Assembly: GCF_000026545.1 (NCBI RefSeq)
Contig: NC_011601.1
Reading direction: 5' to 3' (one strand)
Source of the DNA: Escherichia coli O127:H6 str. E2348/69
GTDB taxonomy: Bacteria > Pseudomonadota > Gammaproteobacteria > Enterobacterales > Enterobacteriaceae
Length of the DNA: 64,000 bases
Shown: positions 3,317 through 42,119 of the stretch, in pieces
Layout: the number at the start of each line of letters is the position of its first letter
Position numbering within the stretch: the first letter of the stretch is position 1
Program-made: the position numbers and the translations under genes
The notes under the pieces: generated by a model
What the model was told of the DNA's origin: nothing
Database searches by the model: none
Seen by the model: only the letters and a program-made list of their open reading frames with translations

Positions 3317-4165
3317 TGCTTCCGCCAGCGGCGGCAAAATCAATTCATCGCTCTCATGCTGCTGGGTGTAGCGCATCACTTCCAGTACGCGCAACCCCGC
3401 ACGGTGCACCGCATCGTTTAACGCCTTCCCTTTCAGCAAACCACTGATAAGCTGAGCACAAAACAGGTCGCCAGTCCCTTTCAGGTCGGTTTTTACCCGT
3501 GAATGGGAAATGACATTCACGCTGTCGGCACTGACCACCACCACCTGCATCTCCTGATTTTCTTCATTACCGGAGGCGCTGGTAATCACCACCCATTTTA
3601 ATGTGTCTGAAAGCAGACTTTTTGCGGCAGCAATGGCACTGTCGAGATCGCGGCAATTTTTACCGGTCAGGATTTCCAGCTCAAAAATATTGGGGGTAAT
3701 TCCCTGCGCCAGCGGCAGTAAATATTGTCGATACGCCTCGGGAAGGTCAGGTTTGACATAAATTCCGCTATCAATATCGCCAATCACTGGATCGACCATG
3801 ATCAATAGGTCAGGATGATCTTTGCGTAGCGCAGTCAGCCACTCGGCAAGGATTTTGATTTGCGATGCCGTTCCCATATAGCCCGTGGTTACAGCACGAA
3901 GTTGGCGCAGCGCATCACGCTCCTGAAGCGCACGCAAATAACCGCTAAACCATTCATCCGGAATCGCACCACCGTAGAAAGTGTCATAATGCGGCGTATT
4001 GCTCAGCAATACCGTCGGCACGGCAAAGACATTCAGGCCGTTCTGTTTGATAGCAGGCACCGCAATGCTGTTGCCTACGCTGCCGTACACTACCTGCGAC
4101 TGCACGGCAACGATATCCGCCTGCAGTGCCCTGCTCTTATCGTTAAACAACAACAAACTACTCAT
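3314..4165 (-). CDS. pdxK: Pyridoxal/pyridoxine/pyridoxamine kinase
   Basis: 283-aa ORF convergent with crr, consistent in size and position with PdxK. Confidence 0.9.
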
Positions 4166-37320: not shown

Positions 37321-37690
37321 AGCCGGTCAGGCGTATCTGGGGTGGGATGATGCCCTTTATCGCCAGACGCTGGCCCGCCTGACCGGTAAAACCAGCACCA
37401 CACGCTGCAATCTCGATGAACTGCGCATCATCCGGGAATACATGCACGAACAGGGATTCCCGCGCAAGGCACCCGCTGGTAAAGGTCGCCGCCCTCGTGT
37501 TGCAATGAGCAGAAAATCAGTATTATCCAAAATTGAAGCGTTGCTGGCTGATGCCGGTCGTTCCTGGGCGTATGCAGAAGGACTGGCATCTCACATGTAT
37601 AAGCAACATGTGATCGAATGGCTGACGGATGAACAGCTTTTTGGAGTGATGGTGGCGCTGGTTAAAGATTCAAGAAGGAGAAATCAATGA
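37292..37690 (+). CDS. GemA-like (Mu gp16 / DUF1018) regulatory protein
   Basis: 132-aa ORF MLKKMIGAIKAGQAYLGWDDALYRQTLARLTGKTS...; family assignment from memory. Confidence 0.55.
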   Translation: MLKKMIGAIKAGQAYLGWDDALYRQTLARLTGKTSTTRCNLDELRIIREYMHEQGFPRKAPAGKGRRPRVAMSRKSVLSKIEALLADAGRSWAYAEGLASHMYKQHVIEWLTDEQLFGVMVALVKDSRRRNQ

Positions 37691-38163
37691 TGAAAAAATG
37701 GTTGTTTTGTTTAGTAGGGGTTATTTTCTCTTGTTCTGTGCTGGCACAGACAGAGGAACAGGCGCAAAAGGAACTGAAACGTTATCAGGATATGAAGCCA
37801 TTGGCTGAACAGATGCTTCGGGAAAGTGGAAAACTTTATTACGCTATGCCAGAAGCTGCATCGCAGTATCAGCAGGGAAATATTGAAGAGTGGAAGAATA
37901 TCAAAAAAGGACTAAAACAACTGGATGAACAGGCCAGTAAACTGGGGGACGACCCGCTTGATCCTGTGTATGGTTCCTGCATAAAAATGAAAAACCAGCT
38001 ACAGGATTACTGGTCTAACGTTATCAGGGATGACAGGCAGTTTCTGGAGCGTTCAAGAAATCAGTTTAAAGAATATCGTATGGATTGTTTTGATTCGTTT
38101 GTTTTTGGTAAAGAGCAAATAGAATCAAGAAAAGGCCTGGTTATTCTAGACCTGACTAAATAA
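37687..38163 (+). CDS. Secreted protein with signal peptide (possible lipoprotein), last gene before the early terminator
   Basis: 158-aa ORF MMKKWLFCLVGVIFSCSVLAQTEEQ... Confidence 0.5.
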   Translation: MMKKWLFCLVGVIFSCSVLAQTEEQAQKELKRYQDMKPLAEQMLRESGKLYYAMPEAASQYQQGNIEEWKNIKKGLKQLDEQASKLGDDPLDPVYGSCIKMKNQLQDYWSNVIRDDRQFLERSRNQFKEYRMDCFDSFVFGKEQIESRKGLVILDLTK

Positions 38164-38263: not shown

Positions 38264-38731
38264 ATGCAGACCTTCAGTGAAACAGATCTTCGCGATGCGC
38301 AGGCACTGCTGCCCGATTCCGTGCAGCAACTGATTAGCGTGATTGGCTTCCCCGCCCTGACCCGGTTGATTCGTTCTTTTGGTGGCGTGACGTTAAGCGG
38401 TAAAACCGGCGTACACGCCGAACGCACCGGCGGTGTCCATGCCCTGTTACATGACGTGCTCACCGAAGACGAAATCAACAAACTGATCCGCTTTCTTGGC
38501 GGTGCTCCGTTTTACATTCCCCGTTGCGATCATGCGTTACGTGCCCTGCGTAACACCCGTTTTATGGCTGATTTACAGCAGCATGTAAAAGACGGATGCT
38601 CACACCGGCAGGCGCTGGCACTGCTCTGTCCCCGTTACGGCATTTCAGACCGGTACGCATGGCAGCTGATACACCGACGACAAAAACAGACTTCGCTGAA
38701 AAGCCCCACCCAGGTGGGGCTTTTTGATTAA
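38264..38731 (+). CDS. Mor/C-family transcription activator
   Basis: 155-aa ORF directly after the early terminator, the position of the Mu middle/late activators. Confidence 0.65.
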   Translation: MQTFSETDLRDAQALLPDSVQQLISVIGFPALTRLIRSFGGVTLSGKTGVHAERTGGVHALLHDVLTEDEINKLIRFLGGAPFYIPRCDHALRALRNTRFMADLQQHVKDGCSHRQALALLCPRYGISDRYAWQLIHRRQKQTSLKSPTQVGLFD

Positions 38732-38757
38732 TGGGCCTCAGAAAAAAGGAGACACTT

Positions 38758-39036
38758 ATGACCAACTATATGGCACTTGGCGAGTATACGGCCTACTCAG
38801 AGCAGGCCCGGGATGCTGCCGGACGTCGCTTTGCTTATATGAAAAATTTGGCCAGTCAGTTAAACCGAATGGCCGAACAACCGGATATGGTTGTTCAGGA
38901 AGAAGCGTTGCAGTGTGCCATTGCTGACATCATCGCCAGCGAAAACGAGATGCGCGCAGCGATGGAAAAGGCGAACGCCTCTGCTCCGCTTTGTAATAAA
39001 CCTCTTATTACGCCGGATTCTCTTTCCCGCTTCTGA
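38758..39036 (+). CDS. Hypothetical protein
   Basis: ATG at 38758 with RBS aaaaggag; the track ORF begins at 38731. Confidence 0.4.
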   Translation: MTNYMALGEYTAYSEQARDAAGRRFAYMKNLASQLNRMAEQPDMVVQEEALQCAIADIIASENEMRAAMEKANASAPLCNKPLITPDSLSRF

Positions 39037-39218
39037 TTTATCACCCCGCCGCCGCGGGGTGCTGAACTCCCCCAGCAGTACCCACCACACCAGACCGTTT
39101 ACCCTGTCCACTCAGACCACAAGGCACCTTAAGGGATAGCGCCCTGCAAAAGGCTTTTGTGCCTTTGACAGGGTGTTATTTACGGGCCGTCAGTGGCTCA
39201 GATTTACAGGAGAAACTC

Positions 39219-39611
39219 ATGTCTGAACCCTTATCAGGCGGCGGAGCTGTGGCAGTCACCATCGGTGGTGCCAGTGTGTTTGGCCTTCTCACCAATACCG
39301 ATTTCGGGGTCGTGGTGGGCGCGTTTGCCGGGGCGCTTTTTGTTGTCACTCAGCAGAAAGAAATCCCGGTATGGCGAATGGCTATTCACCTGCTCGTCGC
39401 GTTTGTGGTTGGCGTTCTGGGGGCTGGCGTGGCTGCGTCACTGATGCAGTGGCTGACCCACTACAACGACAAACCGCTTGATGCATTGTGTGCGGTCGGT
39501 GTCTCGGCGTTATCCATCAAGATACTGACCTTTCTTTATCAACAGGAAATTTCATCGCTGTTCGGCCTGTTTTCCAGACTGCGCGGCGGAGGGGGTGGAA
39601 ATGGAAAGTAG
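39219..39611 (+). CDS. Membrane protein, putative holin-class lysis protein
   Basis: 130-aa ORF with 3-4 hydrophobic helices and RBS; immediately upstream of the endolysin cluster. Confidence 0.45.
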   Translation: MSEPLSGGGAVAVTIGGASVFGLLTNTDFGVVVGAFAGALFVVTQQKEIPVWRMAIHLLVAFVVGVLGAGVAASLMQWLTHYNDKPLDALCAVGVSALSIKILTFLYQQEISSLFGLFSRLRGGGGGNGK

Positions 39612-39897
39612 CCTTGCCGGTATCGTGAACGTCTGGCTGTGTCTCGCCATTGTGCTGGGGTTGTTTGTGTATCGCCGCCACGGTGCGGCGCATAAACCGA
39701 TGATTACCTGGCTGGCGTACTGGCTGATGCTCGGCTACATCATCATCCCGTTCCGCTGGCTGTCCGGTACATACACGCACTCCAGCTGGCTGGTTGTGGC
39801 GCTGAATCTGGTTTTCTGTGCGCTTATCGTGTGGGCGCACGGGAATTTGTCAAAAATCCTTTCGTTACTGAGGCATCCACATGAAATCAAAAGATGA
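39601..39897 (+). CDS. Membrane protein, putative holin/antiholin
   Basis: 98-aa ORF with 3 hydrophobic helices; stop overlaps the endolysin start. Confidence 0.45.
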   Translation: MESSLAGIVNVWLCLAIVLGLFVYRRHGAAHKPMITWLAYWLMLGYIIIPFRWLSGTYTHSSWLVVALNLVFCALIVWAHGNLSKILSLLRHPHEIKR

Positions 39898-40426
39898 CAT
39901 TTTTGATGAAGTCCTGGGCAAAGAAGGCGGTTACGTCAATCACCCGGACGATAAGGGCGGTCCGACCAAATGGGGCATTACGGAAAAAGTCGCCCGCGCC
40001 CACGGATATCGTGGCGATATGCGCGATTTAACCCGCGAACAGGCGCTGGACATCCTTGAAGCCGATTACTGGTATGGCCCGCGATTTGACCAGATCGCCG
40101 CATTATCCCCTGATATTGCCGCAGAGCTGTGTGATACCGGTGTGAATATGGGGCCAACCGTGGCGTCCAGAATGCTTCAGCGCTGGCTGAATGTGTTCAA
40201 TCTGCGCGGCAGGCTGTACCCGGATATGGACGCAGACGGACGCATCGGGCCTCGTACCATCAGTGCATTGCGCGCCTTCCTGAATAATCGCGGTCAGGAC
40301 GGTGAACGGGTGATGCTGACGGCCCTGAACTGTACGCAGGGGGACCGCTATCTGGAACTGGCAGAGAAACGCGAGGCTAACGAATCGTTTGTTTATGGCT
40401 GGCTGAAGGAGCGCGTGGCGGTATGA
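39881..40426 (+). CDS. Endolysin (GH108-type lysozyme with peptidoglycan-binding domain)
   Basis: 181-aa ORF GGYVNHPDDKGGPTKWGIT... characteristic of the glycoside hydrolase 108 family as I recall it. Confidence 0.75.
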   Translation: MKSKDDIFDEVLGKEGGYVNHPDDKGGPTKWGITEKVARAHGYRGDMRDLTREQALDILEADYWYGPRFDQIAALSPDIAAELCDTGVNMGPTVASRMLQRWLNVFNLRGRLYPDMDADGRIGPRTISALRAFLNNRGQDGERVMLTALNCTQGDRYLELAEKREANESFVYGWLKERVAV

Positions 40427-40605
40427 CGCGTCAGCACTGGACCCACAGAACGCCACGTAAAGCCGCGCGCTGTGTTCTGGCCCTGTTTCTGGTGATGTTG
40501 CTTCCGGTGGGATGCACAGACATTAACAGAGCGGGCCAGCTGTTTGACGCGGCGGCGCAGGTCTGCCGGATTATCGATGGTATCCGGCAGTGTTCACAGA
40601 ACTGA
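40423..40605 (+). CDS. Small lipoprotein-like protein, possible spanin component
   Basis: 60-aa ORF with hydrophobic N-terminus ending ...LLPVGC; ATGA overlap with the endolysin stop. Confidence 0.4.
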   Translation: MTRQHWTHRTPRKAARCVLALFLVMLLPVGCTDINRAGQLFDAAAQVCRIIDGIRQCSQN

Positions 40606-40625
40606 TTTTTTGAAGGTCTGACACA

Positions 40626-40832
40626 GTGAGCATTATCAGATTTACAGAATACAGAGGTTCAGGAGGTGCTGGCGCTGTCATGGTGCTCGCTGAACGCATC
40701 ACCCATTTTTACCGTCAGTACGGTACACATGATGGCACGGTCATTGAACTGGATACCGGGAAAAACGTGTTTGTTCTTGAAAATCCCGACGAAGTTCAGC
40801 GCAGGATTGAACAGGCTCAGAAGGACACTTAA
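40626..40832 (+). CDS. Hypothetical protein
   Basis: 68-aa ORF (probable GTG start). Confidence 0.3.
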   Translation: MSIIRFTEYRGSGGAGAVMVLAERITHFYRQYGTHDGTVIELDTGKNVFVLENPDEVQRRIEQAQKDT

Positions 40833-41332
40833 TGGCGTGGTCACAGGATATCAGGGACAAAGTCCGTAACGGGTACATCTTTGACCAGCTTCCGCTGGAT
40901 ATCGTCGCCATGAAGTACGCCGTGCCGCACGATACCGCGCGGCGCTGGAAAACGCAGGCGATGAAGAACGGCGACGACTGGGACAAGCTGCGGGCCGCTC
41001 ACGCGCTCGCCGGTGACGGGCTGGAAAGTGTCGCCCGCACCGTACTTATCAGTCTGGTGGTGAAGTGTCAGACGACGCTTGAACGGCTGAACCAGAACCC
41101 GGACATCCCGCCGCAGGAGTCCGTCGAACTGCTGGCGAGTCTGTCTGACAGTCTCAGTAAGGCGGTGTCCAGCAGTAAAAAAATCCTGCCGGAAACCGAC
41201 CGGCTGGCCACGGCACTGGAAGTGGTGCAGCGGCTCGGCGCGTTCATCAAGGAGCGTCACCCGGCACAGTATGCCCCGTTTCTTGAGGTGCTCGAAGGCT
41301 TCGCTAAAGAGCTTGAGGATAATTTCAGTTAA
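40832..41332 (+). CDS. Mu gp27-like protein (DUF1804; putative small terminase/DNA-recognition subunit)
   Basis: 166-aa ORF two genes upstream of the large terminase (the methyltransferase gene intervenes). Confidence 0.55.
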   Translation: MAWSQDIRDKVRNGYIFDQLPLDIVAMKYAVPHDTARRWKTQAMKNGDDWDKLRAAHALAGDGLESVARTVLISLVVKCQTTLERLNQNPDIPPQESVELLASLSDSLSKAVSSSKKILPETDRLATALEVVQRLGAFIKERHPAQYAPFLEVLEGFAKELEDNFS

Positions 41333-41378
41333 CCACAGCGGCCCGGTTTTCCGGGCCGTCTGATATTCGGGATTTGTA

Positions 41379-42119
41379 ATGCAAAAACAGATTATTGGTA
41401 ACGCAACGTTGTATTGCGGTGATGTTCTTGATGTGCTGCCGGCGTTATCCGAACGTTTTGATGCCGTCATTACCGACCCGCCTTACAGCAGTGGTGGCAC
41501 ACATAAATCAGACCGCAGCATGGCCCCTTCGGACAAGTATGTCGGTCACACCCAGTATGCCGAGTTCAGCGGGGATAACCGCGACCAGCGCAGCTGGGCA
41601 TACTGGAGCACCCTGTGGATGTCCGGGGCTGCCCGCCTTGTGCGCCCCGGTGGTTATGTCATGGTGTTCAGTGACTGGCGACAGCTTCCCACCATGACCG
41701 ACGTTTTTCAGGCCGGTGGTGTGCTGTGGCGTGGTCTTGTTGTCTGGGATAAAACGCAGGCTTCCCGTGCGCCACACACCGGCTATTTCCGGCATCAGGC
41801 CGAGTATGTGGTCTGGGGCAGCAACGGAAAACTCGACAAATGCCCGCACGGTGGCCCGTTCCCGGGTGTGATTACGCAGCGCGTTGTCCCGTCCGAAAAA
41901 CTGCATATGACGGCAAAGCCAGTTCAGTTGATGGCCGAGCTGGTTAAACCGCTGGCACCGGATGCGCACGTTCTCGATCCGTTTATGGGAAGCGGCACCA
42001 CCGCCATCCCTGTACTGGCCCGTGGCGGACGGTTTACCGGCATTGAAATGACTAACCAGTATTTTGATATCGCCTGCGCACGTCTCGAAAAAGCGCAGGC
42101 AGAAGCAGCGCAGGTGTGA
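41379..42119 (+). CDS. Orphan DNA methyltransferase, beta-class (motif IV before motif I), N6-adenine or N4-cytosine
   Basis: 246-aa ORF with catalytic DPPY near the N-terminus (ITDPPYSS) and AdoMet-binding FMGSGTT near the C-terminus; no adjacent endonuclease ORF. Confidence 0.85.
   Translation: MQKQIIGNATLYCGDVLDVLPALSERFDAVITDPPYSSGGTHKSDRSMAPSDKYVGHTQYAEFSGDNRDQRSWAYWSTLWMSGAARLVRPGGYVMVFSDWRQLPTMTDVFQAGGVLWRGLVVWDKTQASRAPHTGYFRHQAEYVVWGSNGKLDKCPHGGPFPGVITQRVVPSEKLHMTAKPVQLMAELVKPLAPDAHVLDPFMGSGTTAIPVLARGGRFTGIEMTNQYFDIACARLEKAQAEAAQV

Follow-up and report, generated by a model that had tools for sequence, protein, structure and literature searches.

How does a phage that carries two consecutive holin-like genes, one endolysin gene and a single small lipoprotein gene open the three layers of a Gram-negative envelope? 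The question is raised by four overlapping genes at positions 39219-40605 of a 64,000-nucleotide stretch of Escherichia coli O127:H6 str. E2348/69 (contig NC_011601.1; hereafter the window). We call them holA, holB, the endolysin gene and orf60:

39219-39611, plus strand: holA, 130 amino acids; overlaps holB by 11 nucleotides
39601-39897, plus strand: holB, 98 amino acids counted from the ATG; overlaps the endolysin gene by 17 nucleotides
39881-40426, plus strand: endolysin gene, 181 amino acids; overlaps orf60 by 4 nucleotides
40423-40605, plus strand: orf60, a 60-amino-acid precursor; the last of the four genes

Our analysis makes it quite likely that these genes form the lysis cassette and first late operon of a Mu-like prophage, with HolA and HolB as a cooperating hole-former, a soluble muramidase, and the orf60 product for the outer-membrane step. 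The locus is an ordinary, already annotated cassette of a known type, and relatives have been described (phiP27, PMC6139136, PMC12571312). Such a lysis module has been seen before in phiP27-like Stx2e phages and in many enterobacterial prophages, and as it stands its significance is small. Its modest novelty is a lipoprotein in the spanin slot with no detectable, and possibly no, partner.

The cassette and its endolysin

An initial annotation had described the four genes as a lysis cassette in which two membrane proteins precede a GH108-type endolysin and a lipoprotein-like open reading frame (ORF), all in overlapping arrangement. Both the arrangement and the assignment were borne out, and the overlaps couple the four genes in translation. 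HolA matched PF16931 Phage_holin_8 in Pfam (E = 3e-25) and the holin family phrog_198 in PHROG (9e-42), and HolB matched PF05449 Phage_holin_3_7 (6e-17) and the holin family phrog_217 (2e-31); for both proteins the matches to curated holin families exceed the cutoff. The endolysin matched PF05838 Glyco_hydro_108 (2e-27, 95.7 bits) and PF09374 PG_binding_3 (1e-26, 93 bits). Searches of Pfam, NCBIfam and PHROG with orf60 returned only phrog_7528 (2e-43), a family of unknown function. The RefSeq/PGAP annotation of E. coli E2348/69 has the same four coding sequences at identical coordinates, named 'phage holin family protein' (twice), 'glycoside hydrolase family 108 protein' and, for orf60, 'hypothetical protein'. 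Similar DNA is present in 148 of 5426 complete E. coli genomes, 32 of which cover at least 80% of the 2.7-kb region.

The way in which the endolysin leaves the cytoplasm limits what kind of hole is needed. Its N-terminus, MKSKDDIFDEVLGKEGG, is hydrophilic and contains no transmembrane domain (TMD), signal-anchor-release (SAR) sequence or signal peptide. A hydropathy scan along the whole protein found no segment with KD15 >= 1.5. The EGGY motif lies at residues 15-18. In a phmmer search against the PDB, full-length matches were found to Sen1395 of Salmonella (6V3Z; E = 4e-106, about 85% identity) and to 6V40 (3e-85, about 68% identity), which we take to be TtsA. Judged from its sequence, the enzyme is a soluble cytoplasmic GH108 N-acetylmuramidase-type endolysin with a C-terminal PG_binding_3 domain.

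The initial annotation had allowed for a pinholin system, in which one membrane protein makes depolarising pinholes that free a tethered SAR endolysin. HolA helix 1 is reminiscent of SAR-type helices, as it is marginally hydrophobic and 63% of its residues are Gly, Ala, Ser or Thr. However, the SAR sequence that the annotation proposed to look for is absent, the endolysin has no N-terminal hydrophobic segment of any kind and closely resembles the soluble Sen1395, and neither HolA with four helices nor HolB with three TMDs has the two-TMD architecture of a pinholin. Because a soluble endolysin without an export signal needs a large-hole holin, the pinholin reading falls away, and we give it next to no probability. 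The holes would be large rather than pinholes because a folded endolysin of about 20 kDa has to be released through them. Once released, the enzyme would bind and cleave the peptidoglycan.

HolA and HolB as probable hole-formers

Both proteins are small, have charged tails and are predicted to lie in the membrane, and both are encoded directly upstream of the endolysin gene; these are the structural criteria by which holins are recognized. The topology check proposed in the initial annotation gave a different result for each. HolB has three strongly hydrophobic TMDs by hydropathy, at about residues 5-24, 33-51 and 62-79. Its basic loop 1 (RRHGAAHK) and basic C-terminal tail (HGNLSKILSLLRHPHEIKR) give a charge distribution that predicts an N-out/C-in topology, and by prediction HolB fits a class I holin of the three-TMD, lambda S type. 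HolA has four hydrophobic helices, at about residues 8-25, 29-46, 51-80 and 85-106/122 by hydropathy and AlphaFold2, a predicted layout outside holin classes I-III. By hydropathy, helices 1 and 2 are Gly/Ala-rich and marginally hydrophobic and helix 3 is strong. The AlphaFold2 model, with helices at 8-25, 29-46, 51-80 and 85-122, is of low confidence (pLDDT 60) and was used for the helix count alone. In an alignment of 22 HolA sequences, the glycine zipper DFGxxxGAFxGA of helix 2 and one Lys of helix 4 are invariant, and the tail SRLRGGGG is conserved; the C-terminal tail of the window protein is SRLRGGGGGNGK, Gly-rich and basic.

A lambda-type dual start, by which one gene yields holin and antiholin, was looked for and rejected in both genes. 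holA has one ATG with AGGAG 5 nucleotides before it, and an upstream GTG at 39159 lies within the non-coding leader. The gaps in the alignment of this leader with that of phiP27 are not multiples of three, so the in-frame GTG is an unlikely start. In holB, GGAGG stands 8 nucleotides before the ATG at 39601 and only 2 nucleotides before an in-frame GTG at 39595, two codons upstream. The resulting GTG-GAA-ATG has an intervening Glu and not a basic residue, and the Shine-Dalgarno spacing suits the ATG alone. This ATG also aligns with the L29 start of phiP27.

The conservation of the two genes as a pair bears on whether they act together. Overlapping holA and holB genes precede the endolysin gene in phiP27 (L28/L29), Rac-SA53, SerU-LTIIb, phiSTEC1575-Stx2k, an Actinobacillus phage record and ENT39118. 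holB-family genes were found in 134 phage records, and in every case inspected the gene directly upstream encodes a 122-140-amino-acid protein with the motif (D/E)xGxxxGAFxGA. The distant pairs inspected were those of mEp390, HK639, Klebsiella KPN U2874, Pseudomonas UF_RH7, Vibrio Pm34 and Hafnia yong2; some of the holA-like partners are too diverged for detection by tblastn. Across these phages the two genes overlap or abut, and the endolysins are of different types. Such an old pair of genes, always inherited together and coupled in translation, speaks for a device that needs both proteins; its conservation fits this reading no less well than that of a holin with a dispensable antiholin.

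Functional data come from a homolog. In porcine Shiga toxin-producing E. coli (STEC), replacement of a 130-amino-acid holin gene downstream of stx2e abolished enrofloxacin-induced release of Stx2e, and a plasmid copy of the gene restored release (PMC12571312). This holin is a HolA homolog of 59-61% identity. When the published primers were mapped on phiP27, the deletion was found to comprise the whole of holA and the first 11 nucleotides of holB including its start codon, and the complementing clone to carry holA alone. Because holA alone complements, HolA is not a mere inhibitor. By analogy with the STEC protein, HolA of the window would be able to permeabilise the membrane by itself.

These results have to be weighed against an arrangement of holin and antiholin, which the initial annotation had also proposed. 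Adjacent holin-like genes often form such pairs, as in P1 LydA/LydB and P2 Y/LysA. HolB alone would be the hole-former and HolA the timing regulator, or the roles would be swapped. HolB by itself has a textbook holin topology, and some database records label these families 'holin/antiholin'. Against this stand the complementation by holA alone of a deletion that also removes the holB start codon, the retention of both genes in phages of Pseudomonas, Vibrio, Hafnia, Klebsiella and E. coli, which is unusual for dispensable antiholins, and the lack of a dual-start motif. We regard a holin with an antiholin as a serious but doubtful alternative.

We favour a cooperating pair. HolA and HolB would accumulate in the inner membrane at a fixed proportion and form holes together, neither of them being a dispensable antiholin. 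Several points weigh against this preference. The functional data were obtained with a HolA of 59-61% identity, and their readout was toxin release rather than lysis. The topologies rest on hydropathy scales and an AlphaFold2 model of pLDDT 60. Finally, sequence does not separate a co-holin from a holin-plus-antiholin division of roles between HolA and HolB. The pair is conserved from Pseudomonas phages to Mu-like coliphages. Since a HolA homolog controls the release of Shiga toxin 2e, the identity of the hole-former is relevant to toxin release from STEC.

Two database proteins related to the holins may be mentioned here. P0108 (E. coli ECZC06_53770, 219 amino acids) has both PF16931 and PF05449, as the result of either a HolA-HolB fusion or a frameshift in the gene call. 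In two loci (L090 and L091, positions 1277-1795), a 172-amino-acid protein with Phage_holin_8 and Big_1 matches is encoded upstream of a lambda-S-type lysis cassette.

The probable lipoprotein orf60 and the proposed outer-membrane step

The orf60 product has a long basic n-region, a hydrophobic h-region, the sequence LLPVG-C31 and a mature part of 30 residues. The mature part is free of Pro, predicted to be helical, of net charge 0, and contains C48 and C57. An AlphaFold2 model gave one long helix of low confidence and was uninformative. The initial annotation had called the lipobox imperfect and the spanin assignment tentative, and it was right on both counts: Pro at -3 lies outside the lipobox consensus, and no inner-membrane spanin (i-spanin) was found.

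The family nevertheless appears to be a genuine lipoprotein family. Among 83 orf60-family copies, 63 have LLVGC or FLVGC and the other 20, which are of Mu type and include the window copy, have LPVGC or LPLGC. Distant members have a canonical lipobox in all cases. G30, C31, C48 and C57 are invariant down to relatives of 32-48% identity. The dN/dS ratio is 0.2-0.3 overall and 0.11-0.18 in the mature part, which indicates purifying selection. Its members are precursors of about 60 residues, with predicted mature lipopeptides of about 30. In IMG/VR 265 relatives were found, and when 1.8 billion representatives were searched with a profile, only 22 clusters matched, among them the relatives of 32-48% identity. 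Residue +2 is Thr and not Asp. Taken together with gene position, the sequence points to a probable outer-membrane lipoprotein in the spanin slot. The protein would be exported by Sec, lipidated at C31 and sorted to the outer membrane, which it would disrupt in the last step of lysis.

The slot is seen most clearly in synteny. In 80 loci retrieved from IMG/VR, orf60 follows holA, holB and an endolysin gene in 75, and the remaining five end at a contig edge. GH108 endolysins occur in 30 loci and M15 peptidases in 49, and even Mu-type prophages with holA, holB and orf60 at least 90% identical to those of the window differ in which of the two they carry. orf60 abuts the endolysin gene in 48 of 79 loci, by a 4-nucleotide overlap or with a spacer of 16-17 nucleotides; in the rest, morons of 250-1070 nucleotides are inserted between them. 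In other prophages, distant family members directly follow lambda-S-type holins (PF05106) and M15 or GH108 endolysins. Such varied company means that orf60 goes with the lysis cassette as such rather than with any one holin or endolysin. Where sister cassettes share the holin pair, canonical i-spanin and outer-membrane spanin (o-spanin) genes take the place of orf60.

This distribution also bears on whether orf60 is a lysis gene at all. Small phage lipoproteins with roles in superinfection exclusion, receptor masking or serum resistance are common, for example T5 Llp, Cor and lambda Bor, and orf60 might be a moron of this kind at the end of the operon. The junction between the endolysin gene and orf60 is an insertion hot spot where morons are frequent in relatives, and orf60 has no family annotation. 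However, orf60 has the same orientation as the endolysin gene and a 4-nucleotide start/stop overlap with it, which predicts late, coupled expression rather than expression in the lysogen. In Mu-like as well as lambdoid phages it accompanies cassettes that have holins of three types and endolysins of at least two, and it lies exactly in the spanin slot of the sister cassettes. A moron lipoprotein is thus unlikely.

If orf60 serves lysis, the class to which it belongs is not obvious. A unimolecular spanin such as T1 gp11 combines an N-terminal lipobox with a C-terminal TMD in one chain, and was rejected for orf60, which ends in ...DGIRQCSQN and has no C-terminal hydrophobic segment. The disruptin phiKT gp28 is a small amphipathic peptide, highly cationic and signal-less, whereas orf60 has a signal peptide and a mature net charge of 0, and this class was likewise rejected. 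With lambda Rz/Rz1, orf60 shares the slot after the endolysin, the form of an Rz1-like outer-membrane lipoprotein precursor and periplasmic Cys residues; it differs in that no i-spanin gene is present here, and its mature part has 30 residues and is helical and Pro-free, whereas that of Rz1 has 40 and is Pro-rich (for these classes see PMC6139136 and bioRxiv 10.1101/515445). By position orf60 resembles an outer-membrane lysis component, yet it appears to stand outside every established class.

We searched the prophage for an i-spanin or a unimolecular spanin in several ways. A TMD scan of all 54 annotated prophage coding sequences identified only HolA, HolB, orf60 and a fourth protein, orf158, as membrane or secreted. 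A lipobox scan of all prophage ORFs, with any start codon, gave only orf60 and orf158 as credible. Unannotated prophage ORFs of at least 50 amino acids with a single N-terminal TMD were all spurious, being antisense to or embedded in other genes. The orf158 gene (37687-38163, 158 amino acids) lies between the gp16/GemA-like gene and the Mor gene, in the early/middle region. Its product has at the N-terminus what looks like a signal peptide or lipobox (MMKKWLFCLVGVIFSC-S, or else VLA-QT as an AXA site), followed by a helical body rich in Glu, Lys and Gln, and searches of Pfam, PHROG and NCBIfam gave no family for it. It was ruled out as the i-spanin, being present in only 7-8 of 20 Mu-type relatives and not co-conserved with orf60. 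It is probably a moron.

A published partner exists for the phiP27 homolog of orf60. Kongari et al. listed phiP27 as the carrier of a 'separated' two-component spanin, whose periplasmic length of 62 residues was the smallest in their survey and whose subunits are both singleton families (PMC6139136). By their coordinates, the o-spanin at 20706-20861 is the orf60 homolog and the i-spanin at 20348-20542 is a 64-amino-acid ORF. This ORF (positions 3693-3887 of our phiP27 locus, L002) starts with TTG and is antisense to a 90-amino-acid ORF that is kept at 44-46% identity in related loci. Homologs of it were found neither in the window nor elsewhere among about 85 related loci, and the annotated coding sequences of phiP27 include no typical i-spanin. 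From this sequence comparison, the published phiP27 i-spanin is a probable mis-call.

orf60 could still be the o-spanin half of a pair whose partner is an unrecognised small ORF, or HolA or HolB. Besides the phiP27 catalogue entry, its invariant periplasmic Cys residues are typical of spanins, and in 27 relatives a small TMD protein is encoded 1 nucleotide before orf60. On the other side, the catalogued i-spanin has a TTG start, lies antisense to a conserved ORF and recurs in none of more than 80 other loci. The only prophage protein with an N-terminal TMD and a periplasmic domain is orf158, with its patchy occurrence. No gene intervenes between the endolysin gene and orf60 where the two abut, as they do in 48 of the 79 loci, and the periplasmic parts of both subunits together would fall far short of bridging the envelope. 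We consider this reading rather unlikely.

Colicin lysis or bacteriocin release proteins offer another model. They are tiny lipoproteins with mature parts of about 27-35 residues and often an LLVGC or LLVAC lipobox, come from the last gene of an SOS-induced operon, and make the outer membrane permeable with no partner in the inner membrane. The likeness to orf60 is one of size and architecture only, with no detectable sequence similarity. Membership of the Pfam family Lysis_col was rejected, as neither orf60 nor three relatives gave any Pfam match even at E <= 1. In the proposed mechanism orf60 would act alone or with an unrecognised partner, no inner-membrane partner being detectable. As a tentative proposal, to which we give less than even weight, the orf60 family may be a stand-alone outer-membrane lysis lipopeptide that replaces the i-spanin/o-spanin pair in the manner of a colicin release protein, without an inner-membrane partner, the phiP27 i-spanin then being a mis-call. 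If this were true, it would add a further class of phage outer-membrane disruption device to two-component spanins, unimolecular spanins and disruptins. If orf60 acts alone, phages of Gram-negative bacteria would have a new way of completing lysis, and a published spanin assignment would be corrected. Our literature searches turned up no paper on o-spanins that lack a partner, on a connection with colicin lysis proteins, or on this prophage and its lysis genes.

A number of observations weigh against the proposed role of orf60. Pro at -3 breaks the [LVI][ASTVI][GAS]C rule, and the window sequence fails both the PROSITE and the Kongari rules, so that lipidation is only putative. A 30-residue lipopeptide is too short to span the periplasm, and to our knowledge there is no established mechanism for an o-spanin without a partner. 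The protein encoded 1 nucleotide before orf60 in 27 P27-type loci (e.g. L005 2326-2499 and L052 3826-3999) has 57-60 amino acids, belongs to phrog_4493 and its relatives, and combines a conserved N-terminal KYKxxxLRL motif with a TMD at the C-terminal end; the window has no copy of it. It could be a lineage-specific partner of orf60 in the P27-type loci. In two further loci (L092 3961-4395 and L093 3202-3636), a 144-amino-acid protein with an N-terminal TMD is encoded 245 nucleotides downstream of a distant orf60 relative. It has a helical domain rich in Lys and Glu and an i-spanin-like look, and has no family beyond a weak DUF2730 match (E = 0.03). orf60 may therefore have partners in some lineages, though not in the prophage of the window.

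Prophage setting, expression and related cassettes

The cassette lies inside a Mu-like prophage of about 35.7 kb (window 27930-63674) that splits eutC, with eutC fragments on either side. The prophage is apparently complete. It has genes for a Mu-type transposase, an AAA (MuB-like) ATPase, a gp16/GemA-like protein, Mor, DUF1804, TerL, a DUF935 portal, Mu F-like and gpT head proteins, sheath, tape-measure and baseplate. It lies between copies of the direct repeat ACACT (ACACACT), at 27930-27934 and 63670-63674, and inverted motifs lie near its ends (CAATTCTGGGCGGAG at 27949-27963; CTCCGCCCAGAATTG at 63620-63634). Where precisely it ends on the right is ambiguous, owing to the ACAC repeat. The lysis genes come directly after a Mor-family activator gene and a small ORF of unknown function, and directly before the packaging genes:

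38264..38731, plus strand: gene for a Mor/C-family transcription activator (PF08765 Mor, 1.7e-6; phrog_836 'late transcriptional activator', 3.5e-42; PGAP 'Mor transcription activator family protein')
39100..39218, plus strand: leader 5' of holA, with hairpins at about 39143-39172 and 39184-39199 and the Shine-Dalgarno sequence AGGAG at 39209-39213

A promoter scan of 38600-41400 found no sigma-70-like promoter, and terminator matches were at chance level. The lack of a sigma-70-like promoter is consistent with an activator-dependent late promoter. By analogy with phage Mu, the Mor-family protein likely activates a late operon that starts with the lysis genes, and would turn it on late in infection.

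Phage Mu has its lysis genes at the same place, behind Mor/C and ahead of the genes for DUF1804 (gp27-like) and terminase. The two cassettes differ completely in their genes. The lysis cassette of Mu has the SAR endolysin gp22, the spanins gp23/gp23.1 and accessory membrane proteins, whereas the window has a soluble GH108 enzyme, lambdoid-type holA and holB, and no spanin pair.

The nearest described relatives are instead the Stx2e phage phiP27 (L28-L31 and an unannotated lipoprotein ORF) and P27-like prophages. There, holA and holB overlap and their products are 59-61% and 49% identical to those of the window, an orf60-family member of 57% identity ends the cassette, and the leader is homologous. 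phiP27 differs in being lambdoid and Q-dependent, in having an M15 peptidase as endolysin and a 489-nucleotide insert between endolysin and lipoprotein genes, and in its canonical lipobox, FLVGC as against LPVGC. The same lysis module is thus found in lambdoid phages and in a Mu-like prophage. The leader homology (window 39100-39218 with L002 2382-2500) includes both hairpins. The second hairpin of phiP27 is terminator-like, with GGGCC...GGCCC followed by U6. In the window its stem is weakened, AGAUUU follows, and the U-tract is lost. This points to a transfer of the module between Q-dependent and Mor-dependent phages in which a terminator was lost. More distantly, mEp390, HK639, ENT39118, Klebsiella KPN U2874, Pseudomonas UF_RH7 and Hafnia yong2 have the same order of holA-like, holB-like and endolysin genes; they differ in that a recognisable i-spanin with an N-terminal TMD, and usually an o-spanin, follows the endolysin, where the window cassette has orf60 alone.

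The resemblance of the endolysin to 6V40 raises one more alternative, that the genes have been domesticated into a TtsA-type module for type 10 secretion that does not lyse the cell. Sen1395 and TtsA share with the window enzyme the GH108 and PG_binding_3 architecture, the lack of an export signal and holin dependence, and type 10 systems derive from lysis cassettes (PMC13284979). Moreover, the strains in which the HolA homolog promotes the release of Stx2e reportedly have no endolysin downstream of the toxin genes (PMC12571312). TtsA, however, is a secretion component for typhoid toxin under PhoP control and without spanins, whereas the window enzyme is encoded in a prophage late operon. The cassette sits in an uninterrupted Mu-like prophage with its transposase, Mor, terminase, head and tail genes, and no cargo toxin gene is adjacent. 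A secretion module is therefore very unlikely, and a lytic cassette of HolA, HolB, muramidase and orf60 remains the reading that we prefer.

Three other features of the prophage were noted. Near its right end (61191-63433), behind the genes for tail fibre and tail-fibre assembly, lie a second assembly gene and a gp53-like gene in the opposite orientation. The layout is like that of an invertible host-range region of the Mu G-segment type, but the annotation of the window has no invertase gene. Between orf60 and the DUF1804 gene, a small ORF at 40626-40832 encodes 68 amino acids from a GTG, or 50 as annotated. Its product belongs to phrog_7691 (function unknown), has a weak FlbD-like Pfam match (E = 3e-4, below the cutoff), is not a membrane protein and is kept in most Mu-type relatives. 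Lastly, a DNA methyltransferase gene at 41379-42119 lies between the DUF1804 (Mu gp27-like) gene and terL, an unusual site within the packaging module.

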